IMG/VR virus record: IMGVR_UViG_2541047931_000009 | Source: a virus | Lineage: Duplodnaviria > Heunggongvirae > Uroviricota > Caudoviricetes | Strand: one strand, 5' to 3' | Length of the DNA: 15,450 bases | Shown here: positions 1,769 to 7,059 of the stretch, piece after piece | How the letters are laid out: each line of letters opens with the position of its first letter | How positions within the stretch are numbered: the first letter of the stretch is position 1 | Notes under the pieces: generated by a model | Database searches by the model: none | What the model was told of the DNA's origin: nothing | The model's input: only the letters and a program-made list of their open reading frames with translations | Program-made: the position numbers and the translations under genes

Positions 1769-2521
1769 ATGAACCTTGAAGCCTTACCAAAATATTACTC
1801 CCCAAAATCTCCAAAATTGAGCGATGACGCTCCAGCGACAGGCACCGGTTGTTTAACAATTACGGATGTAATGGCAGCGCAGGGGATGGTGCAGTCGAAA
1901 GCACCACTTGGGTTGGCCTTATTTCTGGCAAAAGTTGGTGTTCAGGACCCTCAGTTTGCGATTGAAGGCCTGCTAAATTACGCGATGGCACTGGATAACC
2001 CGACATTGAACAAATTGAGTGAAGAAATCCGGTTACAGATTATTCCTTACCTCGTGAGTTTTGCCTTTGCTGATTACTCCAGGTCTGCGGCAAGTAAGGC
2101 TCGCTGTGAGCATTGTTCAGGTACGGGATTTTATAATGTATTGCGCGAAGTGGTGAAACACTACAGACGCGGGGAATCTGTAATCAAGGAAGAATGGGTG
2201 AAGGAACTATGTCAGCATTGCCATGGTAAGGGCGAAGCCAGTACAGCGTGCAGAGGGTGTAAGGGTAAAGGGATTGTTCTGGATGAAAAAAGAACCCGGT
2301 TTCATGGCGTACCGGTATATAAGATTTGTGGGCGTTGTAATGGAAACCGGTTTAGTCGTTTACCGACCACGCTGGCACGACGTCATGTCCAGAAGCTGGT
2401 ACCAGACCTGACCGATTATCAGTGGTATAAGGGGTATGCGGACGTCATTGGTAAACTGGTAACAAAGTGCTGGCAGGAAGAAGCATACGCGGAAGCGCAA
2501 TTGAGGAAGGTGACGAGATAA
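1769..2521 (+). CDS. quuQ: Late-gene antiterminator Q family protein, 250 aa
   Basis: ATG 1769 with GGAG at 1758-1761; four Cys-pair motifs (CEHCSGTG, CQHCHGKG, CRGCKGKG, CGRCNGNR) suggest Zn binding; immediately followed by a promoter-like site and a strong terminator, as expected for Q. Confidence 0.8.
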   Translation: MNLEALPKYYSPKSPKLSDDAPATGTGCLTITDVMAAQGMVQSKAPLGLALFLAKVGVQDPQFAIEGLLNYAMALDNPTLNKLSEEIRLQIIPYLVSFAFADYSRSAASKARCEHCSGTGFYNVLREVVKHYRRGESVIKEEWVKELCQHCHGKGEASTACRGCKGKGIVLDEKRTRFHGVPVYKICGRCNGNRFSRLPTTLARRHVQKLVPDLTDYQWYKGYADVIGKLVTKCWQEEAYAEAQLRKVTR

Positions 2522-2552
2522 ATGATTTTTGCTGAAGATGGCGACATGATGT

Positions 2553-2581
2553 TTGCATTTTTCAAAAAATATGGATAAAAT
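2553..2581 (+). promoter_or_regulatory. Putative late promoter (PR-prime-like) downstream of Q
   Basis: TTGCAT (2553-2558), 17-nt spacer, TAAAAT (2576-2581); position analogous to lambda PR-prime/qut after the Q gene. Confidence 0.35.
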
Positions 2582-2626
2582 TTTTTCAACGATGGGCTTT
2601 GTATACCCGACGTTAAGAAAAAGTAG

Positions 2627-2650
2627 AAAACCCGCTGATGAGCGGGTTTT
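2627..2650 (+). terminator. Rho-independent terminator (tR-prime-like)
   Basis: Perfect 10-bp stem AAAACCCGCT / AGCGGGTTTT with GATG loop, then TTTTGTGCTTT. Confidence 0.7.
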
Positions 2651-2942: not shown

Positions 2943-3155
2943 TCATGAAAGGTAAACATTGGCAGTTGAAGGGCCACGCAGACCATTTATCCGGCAAAAT
3001 TCCACGCGTAATCCGGTGGTAATTTCTTCTGCATCGCGGAGATTGAGCGCTGAAACATGAAGCTGGACATCGATACGACCATCGGATGGGGTGATAAGAC
3101 CCTTGCCGCTTTTGCCGTCAAAGGTTTTGACAATTCCTGTCATTTTACGGGACAA
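2943..3155 (-). CDS. cspF: Cold-shock protein family (CspA paralog), 70 aa
   Basis: Translation [39 protein letters not shown]... has the cold-shock-domain fold pattern; divergent from cspB. Confidence 0.9.
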
Positions 3156-3279: not shown

Positions 3280-3455
3280 TGCGTTAATGATTGCGTCGGT
3301 TTGAAGAACAGACGATATACGAAGTAGTTTACTAAAGCAGTTCTCATTTCAGGTGTTATTCACTTATTCCTTCTTTGAGTCTCTCCAATTAAGTACGAAG
3401 TCGTTTCTGTTATGCAAACCATTTATGCCGAAAGGCTCAAGTTAAGGAATGTAGA
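3280..3455 (+). promoter_or_regulatory. cspB promoter and long cold-shock 5-prime UTR (cold-box-like and upstream-box elements)
   Basis: ATGCGTTAATG core (3278-3290) shared with the cspI upstream region; CGGTTTGAAGAACAGACG (3297-3314) resembles the cspA cold box; GCCGAAAGGC (3427-3436) matches the cspA upstream box just 5-prime of SD AAGGA. Confidence 0.55.
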
Positions 3456-3671
3456 ATGTCAAATAAAATGACTGGTTTAGTAAAATGGTTTAACGCTGAT
3501 AAAGGTTTCGGCTTTATTTCTCCTGTTGATGGTAGTAAAGATGTGTTTGTGCATTTTTCTGCGATTCAGAATGATAATTATCGAACCTTATTTGAAGGTC
3601 AAAAGGTTACCTTCTCTATAGAGAGTGGTGCTAAAGGTCCTGCAGCAGCAAATGTCATCATTACTGATTAA
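3456..3671 (+). CDS. cspB: Cold-shock protein CspB, 71 aa
   Basis: [38 protein letters not shown]... with RNP1-like KGFGFI and RNP2-like VFVHF motifs. Confidence 0.93.
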
Positions 3672-3952
3672 AATTCATCGCTCGTCTGTATACGATAACG
3701 AAGAAGGCTGATGCCTGAGTAGAGATACGGACAGAGTAGTGAATATTGGATCTCTTTAATAAAAAGTAAGGAGGTCCAATACATGAAACAATGGCTAGCA
3801 TATTTGGCAAAATCTTAATCAGGAAAAGTATGCTAACCATTGTGGTGAAGTGCAGGTTTGCTGCATGAATAGTTTTACAGCAGAAGCTAACTGCTGGCAT
3901 GGCAAAACAAAGTGCGTAAGTGGATGACTCCCACAAAAAGCACCACAATCTC

Positions 3953-3975
3953 AAACCCGCTCAGGCGGGTTTTTT
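3953..3975 (+). terminator. Rho-independent terminator about 280 nt downstream of cspB
   Basis: Stem AAACCCGC / GCGGGTTT with TCAG loop, followed by TTTTTATTAT. Confidence 0.6.
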
Positions 3976-4034
3976 ATTATCTGCTTTAAATATATTATTA
4001 AAATATAAAAAATACTTGTTACTAATAAAATCAA

Positions 4035-4205
4035 TCAGGCTACAGCTTTAAGATTTGTCTGGAATACTTTGTTGCAATGAGGGCAGATCAAAAGGGCACC
4101 TTTTTGTACTCTTGAAAAACTGTGTTCTGACTCTTGGGTGCAGTTTGGGCAGGAACATTTAACGAGATAATTACGGCGTGATTTTGAGTTTTTACGTTCT
4201 GACAT
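4035..4205 (-). CDS. Small basic Zn-ribbon protein, 56 aa (CxxC...CxxC), unknown function
   Basis: Minus-strand ATG at 4205 preceded by SD AGGAAAAG at about 6 nt; MSERKNSKSRRNYLVKCSCPNCTQESEHSFSRVQKGALLICPHCNKVFQTNLKAVA. The track ORF (73 aa from 4256) has no SD at its start. Confidence 0.5.
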   Translation of the reverse strand: MSERKNSKSRRNYLVKCSCPNCTQESEHSFSRVQKGALLICPHCNKVFQTNLKAVA

Positions 4206-4424
4206 AGGCTTTTCCTGTATAAATGGCCGTATACAGTACACTAAATATGAAAACATTTCTCGTATTATTATTTTATATATGACTTTCTTTCAAAATAATT
4301 ACCCACATTTTTAATGTGTATGTTTTTTTAGCGCCGTTGAGAACAACGTGTGCTGTCAAAACTACCCCGTAGACTCCGATCTTTTCAAACATATTGCACC
4401 ATCCGTGTACATCGGGGTGAGGAT

Positions 4425-4640
4425 ATGAAATCAATGGATAAGTTAACAACAGGTGTTGCCTATGGCACATCGGCGGGTAATGCTGGTTTCTGGGCATTGC
4501 AGTTACTCGATAAAGTAACTCCGTCACAGTGGGCTGCAATCGGTGTGCTGGGTAGCCTGGTTTTTGGCCTGCTGACGTATCTGACAAATCTTTATTTCAA
4601 GATTAAAGAAGACAGGCGTAAGGCTGCGAGAGGAGAGTAA
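4425..4640 (+). CDS. essQ: Phage-21-type class II holin (pinholin) with dual-start motif, 71 aa
   Basis: [31 protein letters not shown]...: two TM segments, Met1-Lys-Ser-Met4 dual start, charged C-terminus; sits directly upstream of the endolysin. Confidence 0.85.
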
Positions 4641-6343: not shown

Positions 6344-6556
6344 ATGTCTAACAAAATGACTGGTTTAGTGAAATGGTTTAACCCTGAAAAAGGTTTTGGT
6401 TTCATCACGCCGAAAGATGGCAGCAAAGATGTGTTTGTCCATTTCTCAGCAATTCAGAGCAACGATTTCAAAACATTAACTGAGAATCAGGAAGTTGAAT
6501 TTGGTATTGAGAACGGACCTAAAGGTCCTGCCGCTGTTCATGTTGTGGCGCTTTGA
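6344..6556 (+). CDS. cspI: Cold-shock protein CspI, 70 aa
   Basis: [38 protein letters not shown]...; paralog of cspB (first 13 codons nearly identical at nucleotide level). Confidence 0.93.
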
Positions 6557-6755
6557 GGTAGACAATATTACAAACCATATTCACTTTAGATGCCCGTGTT
6601 GTCATGGTTCCCAGTATAGAACATCATCTTTTGATGTTTCTGACATGAATCCTTTCGGGGCAAAATGTATCTTTTGTAAATCAATGATGATTACATTTGA
6701 TAATATTTCACAATACTTAAATGCCAGCCGTCTGTCGTTGGATTTAAAAAAGTGA
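6540..6755 (+). CDS. ynfQ: Small Zn-ribbon protein (CPCC...C..C), YmcF/YnfQ-like position next to a csp gene
   Basis: In-frame ATG 6540 overlaps the last 17 nt of cspI; [33 protein letters not shown] motif; strong terminator immediately downstream. Exact start uncertain. Confidence 0.4.
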
Positions 6756-6760
6756 AAATG

Positions 6761-6784
6761 AAGGCTCCTTCGGGAGCTTTTTTG
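6761..6784 (+). terminator. Rho-independent terminator with UUCG tetraloop
   Basis: Stem AAGGCTCC / GGGAGCTT around TTCG loop, followed by TTTTTT. Confidence 0.7.
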
Positions 6785-6903
6785 CTTGGTGTCTATTCGA
6801 TGGATACTCACATACTACGGTAACATCATGAAAAAAATCATAGTTTTTTTTTAACTCTGAACCAGCAGTGGTAGTGCCAGCGATGACTGGAGTTAACACC
6901 ATC

Positions 6904-7059
6904 ATGCGTGAATATCCAAATGGCGAAAAAACACACCTTACTGTAATGGCCGCAGGGTTTCCATCTCTGACCGGAGATCATAAAGTCATTTATGTAGCCG
7001 CGGATCGACATGTTACTTCAGAAGAAATTCTGGAAGCAGCAATAAGGCTCTTGAGTTGA
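6904..7059 (+). CDS. ynfN: Small prophage protein, 51 aa
   Basis: ATG 6904 gives MREYPNGEKTHLTVMAAGFPSLTGDHKVIYVAADRHVTSEEILEAAIRLLS; matches recalled YnfN length and sequence. The track ORF starts upstream at 6868. Confidence 0.6.
   Translation: MREYPNGEKTHLTVMAAGFPSLTGDHKVIYVAADRHVTSEEILEAAIRLLS

Follow-up and report, generated by a model that had tools for sequence, protein, structure and literature searches.

The window, i.e., the whole 15,450-nucleotide stretch of DNA that was analyzed, carries the gene ynfU on its minus strand between cspB and the lysis genes (Table 1). The ATG start codon of ynfU occupies positions 4205..4203, the TGA stop codon occupies positions 4037..4035, and the product is MSERKNSKSRRNYLVKCSCPNCTQESEHSFSRVQKGALLICPHCNKVFQTNLKAVA. 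The initial annotation had described a minus-strand ORF of 56 amino acids with a good Shine-Dalgarno (SD) sequence at this place, and both the coordinates and the sequence are as claimed, and the SD reads CAGGA. By contrast, its description of the ORF as unannotated-looking does not hold; RefSeq already names the ORF "ynfU: putative zinc-binding protein YnfU". YnfU gives full-length matches above the curated cut-offs to both family models, i.e., Pfam PF23499 "YnfU" (107.3 bits, cut-off 27, E = 3.5e-31, residues 1-49 of the 49-position model) and NCBIfam NF038384 "YnfU family zinc-binding protein" (79.4 bits, cut-off 36, E = 1.1e-22), and thus belongs to this family. The gene in the window is identical to the K-12 MG1655 record, does not differ from ynfU of the Qin prophage of E. 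coli K-12, and has in common with it the two CPxC knuckles and the SEHSF motif. Also, the surrounding ORFs and their annotation mark the window as an E. coli Qin-type lambdoid prophage. A megablast search places the ynfU region in 1,653 of 5,426 complete E. coli genomes, in which RefSeq carries the ynfU name; searched by itself, the CDS has matches in 1,649 E. coli genomes, of which 1,639 match over its full length and all but one with at least 95% identity. Altogether, we consider it practically certain that the ORF is ynfU, a real translated gene of the E. coli Qin prophage. This identity is already known: the gene has been named, is represented in Pfam and NCBIfam, and has been shown to be translated since 2019. 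A 73-residue alternative reading from an ATG at 4256 was rejected because its N-terminal extension is not conserved, and a short ORF of 11 codons, preceded by a strong SD and located between cspB and ynfU, is confined to Escherichia and Shigella.

Genes and signals around ynfU

Beyond the holin gene, the window continues with ydfR, the lysozyme gene rrrQ, and rzpQ, followed by cspI and its small neighbors. The GC content is 0.40 for ynfU, 0.35-0.37 for its flanks, and 0.47 for the lysis genes. Downstream of quuQ, a consensus scan identified a pR'-like promoter followed by a hairpin terminator and, by analogy with the pR'/tR' layout of lambdoid phages, the segment 2552..2650 is likely the start of the Q-dependent late transcript. 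Given this unit, the late transcript would cross cspF antisense, cspB sense, and ynfU antisense on its way to the holin gene. The statement that ynfU is antisense to the late transcript is, therefore, correct in that the gene lies on the strand opposite the lysis genes, while late read-through is plausible in view of the pR'/tR'-like unit. This antisense position is what is normally seen for morons in the slot between Q and S. Lambdoid Q-S morons, e.g., stx and the csp genes of Qin, are AT-rich units between Q and the holin gene that have their own promoter and are expressed in the lysogen; ynfU resembles them in position, AT content, and expression, and has a putative promoter of its own. The term moron describes a layout and not a function, and ynfU is also found outside phages.

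Table 1. Features of the window in and around ynfU
Feature	Position	Strand	Description
quuQ	1769-2521		Stop at 2521
pR'-like promoter	2552-2581	+	Candidate from consensus scan, just downstream of quuQ
Hairpin terminator	2627-2650	+	10-bp hairpin, flanking T-runs, ∼45 nt past the pR'-like promoter
cspF	2943-3155	−	ORF and annotation; third member of the cspF-cspB-ynfU cassette
cspB with cspA-type thermoregulator leader	3295..3671	+	Rfam RF01766, 158.8 bits; convergent neighbor of ynfU
cspB CDS	3456-3671	+	
G+C-rich hairpin	3953..3972		Between convergent cspB and ynfU; intrinsic terminator of cspB, T-run on the plus strand
ynfU CDS	4035..4205	−	56 codons plus TGA stop; ORF list and sequence
SD CAGGA	4213..4217	−	7 nt upstream of the ynfU ATG
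-10-like hexamer TACTGT	4233..4238	−	∼27 nt upstream of the ATG; family pattern TAnnnT
Second sigma-70-like match	4264..4293	−	TTGAAA-18-AATAAT, 10/12; Escherichia-type copies only
Holin gene essQ (annotated essD)	4425..4640	+	Divergent from ynfU, 219-bp spacer
YmcF-like gene	6495-6755		

Conservation and expression of ynfU

For the comparison, we used one locus per species from 80 species together with three phage copies, giving 83 copies of ynfU. The frame is open in all 83 copies and starts at the same codon (81 ATG, 2 GTG), and a CAGGA(A/G) SD stands at the same distance from the start in nearly all of them. The encoded proteins are 51-60 residues long. The Nei-Gojobori dN/dS for the 605 pairs with dS between 0.1 and 1.5 has a median of 0.109, a mean of 0.124, and a maximum of 0.55, while each of the five alternative frames is interrupted by stops in 76-80 of the 80 species. 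Thus, ynfU is under strong purifying selection, and the frameshifts or stops in relatives that had been named as the observation that would speak against the gene are absent from all 83 copies. The YnfU family is small and confined to Enterobacterales. A profile search of 1.84 billion cluster representatives returned only 37 matches at E ≤ 1e-3, a word-indexed search returned 49 matches, of which every named one is from Enterobacteriaceae, and a Pantoea genome paper lists a chromosomal "YnfU family" gene.

An alignment of 46 ynfU upstream regions contains a block that is conserved between genera and has the form AAGCWAT-N13-(C)GTG-TAnnnT-N6-CC-ATT-N4-CAGGA-N7-ATG, in which T38, A39, and T43 of TAnnnT are invariant. 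The invariant T, A, and T correspond to the three most conserved positions of the sigma-70 -10 hexamer. The AAGCWAT block and an A-rich tract stand upstream of TAnnnT in the place of a good -35 element, and conservation ends ∼65 nt before the ATG, whatever DNA lies beyond. From its sequence, we read the TAnnnT block as the putative ynfU promoter with a weak -35 element and a leader of ∼22 nt; this leader is short, unlike the long leaders of csp genes. The second sigma-70-like match (Table 1) is not conserved outside Escherichia, and promoter-like matches of this kind are as frequent in the region as expected from shuffled sequence. An RNA leader or thermosensor was also considered for ynfU because a hairpin in the E. 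coli sequence could mask the SD. It was rejected because the conservation is that of an invariant TAnnnT instead of covarying arms and because the predicted transcription start would leave part of the hairpin outside the transcript. In addition, no family overlapped ynfU in the Rfam scan. In the terminator scan, the hairpin between cspB and ynfU was the only candidate stop signal for ynfU; it lies 63 nt past the stop codon and has a poor U-tract when read in the direction of ynfU.

Ribosome profiling and tagged expression, which had been proposed as checks on the gene, are both positive in the literature. In E. coli K-12, ynfU was detected by Ribo-Ret, i.e., ribosome profiling of stalled initiation complexes, and western blotting with a chromosomal SPA tag confirmed the protein, which was the most abundant among the newly found small proteins by this assay (Weaver et al. 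2019). PIRT-Seq independently detects ynfU. YnfU-SPA was seen in uninduced cells grown in LB at 37 °C in both exponential and stationary phase and is thus expressed in the lysogen, as is the case for prophage morons. Because YnfU is made in uninduced cells, in which the late operon of the defective prophage is silent, ynfU is expressed independently of the Q-dependent late operon. Our literature search found no functional experiment on YnfU and no cold-shock or other functional data on ynfU, and the papers that it returned stop at "zinc-binding motif". A polymorphism in the ynfU/cspB intergenic region is listed for a silver-nanoparticle evolution line without functional evidence.

The predicted zinc ribbon of YnfU and its likeness to other proteins

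YnfU is a 6.4-kDa protein with a pI of 9.6 and a net charge of about +7, and the pI across the family is 9.4-10.0. It consists of a basic tail (residues 1-12) and a predicted zinc ribbon (residues 14-49) in which two CPxC knuckles, C19-P-N-C22 and C41-P-H-C44, are spaced by ∼18 residues and have S26, E27, H28, S29, and F30 between them. The knuckles and SEHSF are invariant or nearly so in 28-34 aligned family members, and the alignment contains an invariant SEHSF-x-R-x-QKG motif between the two knuckles. By contrast, C17 is replaced by Ser or Asn in Atlantibacter and is missing in a distant branch of the family. Because C17 is not conserved, the predicted zinc ligands are C19/C22 and C41/C44. 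The pattern CSCPNC...CPHC, which the initial annotation had taken as a zinc ribbon, is therefore borne out for the two CPxC knuckles but not for the first Cys of CSC. Not all microproteins with CPxC motifs bind zinc.

AlphaFold with the 28-sequence alignment modeled YnfU with a pLDDT of 66; after addition of the distant branch, the AlphaFold2 model reached a pLDDT of 76.8, with values of 82-88 over residues 11-50. The model comprises a strand (14-18), knuckle 1, a strand (25-29), a helix (30-35), a strand (38-40), knuckle 2, and a strand (47-49), and is flanked by disordered tails at residues 1-12, which are Lys/Arg-rich, and 50-56. Two beta-hairpins and the CxxC knuckles bring the four Cys residues together in the model, and YnfU is thus predicted to have the classical C4 zinc ribbon fold. 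Altogether, the Lys/Arg-rich N terminus and zinc-ribbon core noted in the initial annotation are supported by the matches to PF23499 and NF038384 and by the AlphaFold model.

Outside the YnfU family, none of the likenesses in sequence and structure reaches statistical significance, and they are of the kind that any zinc ribbon shows. With the pLDDT 66 model, fold searches returned generic zinc ribbons only. With the better model, Foldseek repeatedly ranked HVO_2753/aS21-like zinc-knuckle proteins of archaeal 30S/70S ribosomes first, at scores that are not significant (E = 0.095-1, probability up to 0.97, TM 0.43-0.50; TM 0.46-0.50 for the top matches). In archaea, aS21 is part of the 30S subunit and contains two zinc knuckles. 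Like YnfU, aS21/HVO_2753 (PDB 9o17_AZ, 9fhl_C, 7zhg_C, and 6ydh) are basic proteins of 50-65 residues with a zinc-knuckle beta-ribbon topology, and they are the best and most consistent structural matches of YnfU, yet with E ≥ 0.095. However, HVO_2753 has four C(P)XCG motifs whereas YnfU has two CPxC motifs without the Gly, and aS21/HVO_2753 are archaeal whereas YnfU is enterobacterial. Weak matches to HVO_2753 and to the "Zn-ribbon RNA-binding protein" model PRK14890 were also seen. The window YnfU did not match the HVO_2753/aS21 family models NF041909 and PF07754, and the distant member P0068 scored 17.7 bits against a cut-off of 80 for NF041909 and E = 0.0039, below the gathering score, for PF07754. 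Thus, aS21 might serve as an analog of a possible mode of action of YnfU and not as a family assignment.

Three further groups of small zinc proteins resemble YnfU. The N-terminal zinc ribbon of PhnA/YjdM (PF08274; P. aeruginosa PA0128, PDB 2akl) is the best non-self Pfam match (E = 1.3e-4, found with 21 of 28 members), and this similarity had already been noted by the discoverers of YnfU. However, YnfU scores 22.4 bits against a gathering score of 30.8 bits and matches PDB 2akl at E = 0.55, so it falls outside this family; moreover, YjdM has an extra C-terminal domain that YnfU lacks. In a sequence profile search of the PDB, YnfU matched Tim15 best (E = 0.021), followed by L44e (0.045) and PA0128 (0.55). 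Tim15 belongs with the DNL fingers (PF05180; Tim15/Zim17/Hep1, the mitochondrial Hsp70 escort protein), which share with YnfU a C-x2-C-x3-4-S-x-H-S/T-x-S...KG-x2-L-I-x-CPxC core. The DNL zinc finger is defined by a D(N/H)L motif after the second CxxC. YnfU has no D(N/H)L at the required spacing, and its C terminus after F48 is variable; moreover, PF05180 gives 13.5 bits against 27, and the 7 of 28 members with a match at E ≤ 1 (best 0.013) are all below threshold. YnfU was, therefore, rejected as a DNL finger. Finally, the YmcF-like proteins (PF23641; ymcF and the gene beside cspI that PGAP calls ynfQ) are also small CxxC...CxxC proteins encoded next to csp genes; homology between these proteins and YnfU was rejected based on an hhalign probability of 3.1%. 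YnfU had no meaningful match in PHROGs, and none of the PADLOC defense models matched it at E ≤ 1.

Gene neighborhood and possible function of YnfU

To describe the neighborhood of ynfU, the 80 loci were searched with the window's own proteins, and the neighboring ORFs were also clustered de novo. In 57 of the 80 species, a csp gene lies within 600 bp of ynfU. Within 1.5 kb, a YnfN-like gene, usually divergent and upstream, is present in 23 species, a gene for a YmcF-like Cys-rich protein (PF23641) in 15, and at least one of Csp, YnfN, YmcF, and Gns in 64. A gene for holin, lysozyme, Rz, or Q is found within 3 kb in 10 species, and a holin gene lies near ynfU in 7; the ten loci with lysis or Q genes, which belong to Escherichia, Shigella, two Citrobacter, one Superficieibacter, and one Yokenella, all have a csp gene as well. 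Of the nearest csp genes, 39 lie downstream and converge with ynfU, 10 lie downstream in the same orientation, and 8 lie upstream. The four arrangements of csp and ynfU indicate that the linkage has outlasted rearrangement. In all 12 loci tested, which come from about ten genera, the adjacent csp gene carries the RF01766 cspA thermoregulator.

The wider setting of ynfU varies. The cspF-cspB-ynfU trio of the window recurs at other loci, one of them in a phage: in PHB10, ynfU and the cspB-like and cspF-like genes lie between the tail-fibre/umuDC genes and the integrase gene, far from the lysis genes. In the Klebsiella phage ST13-OXA48phi12.4, ynfU is divergent from the holin gene, and no csp gene accompanies it. 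In many Enterobacter genomes, ynfU is in the core chromosome between genes for a GST and a tautomerase on one side and an ArsR-type HTH protein and an EF-G paralog on the other, and in Klebsiella, a CSD gene follows ynfU among metabolic genes of the chromosome. Of four distant members checked, three are chromosomal (beside Usp/ABM/ydhR, lldPRD/OYE, and MFS/TetR genes), and the fourth is antisense between Rz and Nu1 in a prophage. ynfU has been captured into prophage moron slots more than once. No csp gene is near ynfU in the four distant members, and none is near it in 23 of the 80 species. Altogether, linkage to csp genes is strong, yet limited to the Enterobacteriaceae clade. Because the 80 species share ancestry and do not count as independent cases, the linkage could reflect residence in the same flexible AT-rich islands or common descent of a cassette and not a shared function. 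A link between ynfU and cold-shock genes, as raised in the initial annotation, is thus seen at the level of gene linkage. New here are the linkage to csp genes, the presence of ynfU on the chromosome in other genera, and the conserved block of the putative promoter and leader; these are modest additions.

We suggest that Qin-like phages carry cspF-cspB-ynfU as a moron cassette in the Q-S slot, and that its expression in the lysogen does not depend on the late operon. In this model, nucleic acid would be bound by the zinc ribbon and the disordered Lys/Arg-rich tails of YnfU, our best guess for the ligand being RNA or the small ribosomal subunit, and YnfU would act in the same stress and cold adaptation of RNA and translation as the neighboring Csp RNA chaperones. 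The guess of RNA or the ribosome is made because of the csp neighbors and the ranking of aS21-like proteins in Foldseek. We regard a lysogen-expressed, Csp-linked YnfU that binds nucleic acid or the ribosome as the best overall explanation, and we hold it tentatively; the nucleic acid-binding, Csp-linked mechanism in itself is put forward with slightly greater reserve. cspB and cspI have been reported to be upregulated and important in long-term stationary phase, and several csp genes have been reported to be induced after inhibition of replication. Against a role in the cold, YnfU is already abundant at 37 °C, and the predicted ynfU leader does not resemble the long leaders of csp genes. A more specific version, which we consider improbable, is that YnfU is the bacterial counterpart of aS21/HVO_2753, by convergence or very distant descent, that it binds the 30S subunit or structured mRNA and works together with cold-inducible Csp proteins, and that lambdoid phages captured csp-ynfU as a translation-adaptation cassette that improves fitness of the lysogen in the cold or in long-term stationary phase.

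The main rival is that YnfU binds and modulates a larger protein and not nucleic acid, with the csp neighborhood being incidental or the target being a cold or stress protein. Many bacterial microproteins and small zinc ribbons act in this way, including the gyrase inhibitor YacG, the Hsp70 escort protein Tim15/Zim17, Trm112, ZitP, and LysW. However, the matches of YnfU to protein-binding zinc ribbons are below significance, including those to the DNL finger in 7 of 28 members with their best E of 0.013 and the missing D(N/H)L, and the net charge of +7 together with the Lys/Arg-rich tails favors a polyanionic partner over a protein. We consider this rival unlikely. Less likely again is that YnfU is a generic accessory gene unrelated to csp genes or RNA, e.g., one for zinc handling, superinfection exclusion, or anti-phage defense, and that it shares islands with csp genes by co-residence. 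The highly varied contexts of ynfU and its repeated capture into moron slots fit this possibility, as do the low GC content of ynfU and its flanks compared to the lysis genes and the missing csp link in the distant branch. By contrast, YnfU matches no PADLOC model, a single C4 site in a protein of 56 residues is a poor zinc store, and the csp linkage persists through four arrangements in prophage and chromosomal settings, which is more than co-residence predicts. That the ORF is a chance open frame or gives rise to an antisense transcript only, without a protein, has its small size alone in its favor and is already refuted by its detection in ribosome profiling, tagging, and PIRT-Seq, by a dN/dS of 0.11, and by the conservation of start and SD in 83 of 83 copies.

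The initial annotation had proposed that YnfU regulates late or lysis genes of the phage, and such regulation could be exerted by the protein itself or by convergent antisense transcription that opposes the late transcript. In Qin-type phages and in ST13-OXA48phi12.4, ynfU does occupy the interval between Q and the holin gene, in opposite orientation and with 190-220 bp to the start of the holin gene; given the pR'/tR'-like unit that follows quuQ, late transcripts would read through ynfU in antisense; and the prophage-borne distant member between Rz and Nu1 is likewise antisense. However, the consistent association across homologs that is expected of such a regulator is not seen: lysis or Q genes are close to ynfU in only the 10 species described above, many copies are in the core chromosome without phage genes, and the PHB10 copy is far from the lysis cassette. 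Moreover, uninduced cells with a defective prophage contain abundant YnfU at 37 °C, lysogen-expressed morons usually stand in the opposite orientation and have a promoter of their own, YnfU has no PHROG family match, and the strong purifying selection acting on the protein speaks against an antisense role at the RNA level alone. We therefore consider regulation of late or lysis genes by YnfU to be very unlikely and are confident that YnfU is not a dedicated lysis regulator.

The comparative result narrows the search for the function of YnfU to the csp genes and the YnfN-like and YmcF-like genes around cspI and cspG and away from the lysis cassette. If YnfU does not prove to be a partner of Csp proteins, it simply adds to the number of conserved microproteins. 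If, on the other hand, YnfU is a ribosome or RNA partner of Csp proteins, it would be a new component of the cold-shock and stationary-phase translation response of E. coli, and this partnership would explain why phages carry csp cassettes.

Candidate regulatory and coding elements around ynfU

The features considered here are collected in the table. The arrangement downstream of the antiterminator gene quuQ, in which a promoter-like site is followed by a G+C-rich hairpin with T-runs on either side, is as expected of the late promoter pR' and terminator tR' of Qin, with a short 6S-like RNA.

Candidate features in the window and at ynfU-family loci (L-numbers) of other genomes and phages
Feature	Location	Strand	Position
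Promoter-like site TTTGCA-18-TAAAAT	window, within 2552-2650	+	30 nt past quuQ stop
10-bp G+C-rich hairpin	window, within 2552-2650	+	~45 nt past promoter-like site
11-codon ORF MKQWLAYLAKS	window 3783-3818	+	cspB 3' region, 5' of terminator hairpin
isrK match	window 3897-3975	+	overlaps cspB terminator
YmcF-like Cys-rich ORF (PF23641), ynfR, ynfN	window 6495-7059	+	directly 3' of cspI
STnc100 match (RF02076)	L033 5740-5869	-	~130 bp upstream of ynfU, opposite strand
HannyBb extra region	L004 5105-8145		between cspF and Q gene
P0065	L096 3501-3674	opposite to late genes	between Rz-like gene and Nu1

The 11-codon ORF is preceded by a near-perfect Shine-Dalgarno sequence (TAAGGAGGT) at a spacing of 7 nt. 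Copies with 1-3 substitutions were found only in Escherichia and Shigella, and among the ynfU loci compared, the ORF is missing from every other genus having a convergent csp gene.

The Hfq-binding sRNA isrK is carried on a prophage in Salmonella. Its Rfam match in the window is weak: at 18.3 bits it falls short of the gathering score, which is 50, and it is probably due to chance. Separately, in Superficieibacter sp. (L033), a match to the sRNA family STnc100 scored 68.4 bits, which is above the gathering score.

Small-protein genes next to cspI

The YmcF-like ORF, which PGAP names "ynfQ, cold-shock protein", has no detectable homology to YnfU. In other species, ynfU has neighbors of the YmcF-like family in 15 of 80 cases and of the YnfN-like family in 23 of 80, suggesting that these small proteins belong to a recurring "cold-shock island" gene set.

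Variation of the locus among genomes, phages and prophages

In several E. coli genomes (hits H1-H6), IS1 or IS200C is inserted inside the 551-bp stretch corresponding to window 3900-4450. In one of them, NZ_CP074754.1, two YnfU-family features are annotated beneath the match, a sign that IS1 may have interrupted the ynfU gene itself.

Compared to K-12, the Escherichia phage HannyBb (PP925841.1) carries ~3 kb of extra DNA, annotated as ~20 consecutive "hypothetical proteins" of ~30-55 aa each, nearly all on the same strand. This run of small ORFs represents either over-annotation or an unrecognized noncoding or repeat feature.

The distant YnfU-family member P0065 (36% identical) is encoded on the prophage contig DBBACT010000095.1, in a different prophage, where the flanking Rz-like gene encodes a DUF2514 protein and Nu1 is the terminase small subunit. 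Its position in a different prophage and its orientation, once again antisense to the late genes, indicate a second, independent capture of a YnfU-family gene into a moron slot, i.e., a site for accessory genes that are expressed in the lysogen from their own signals.
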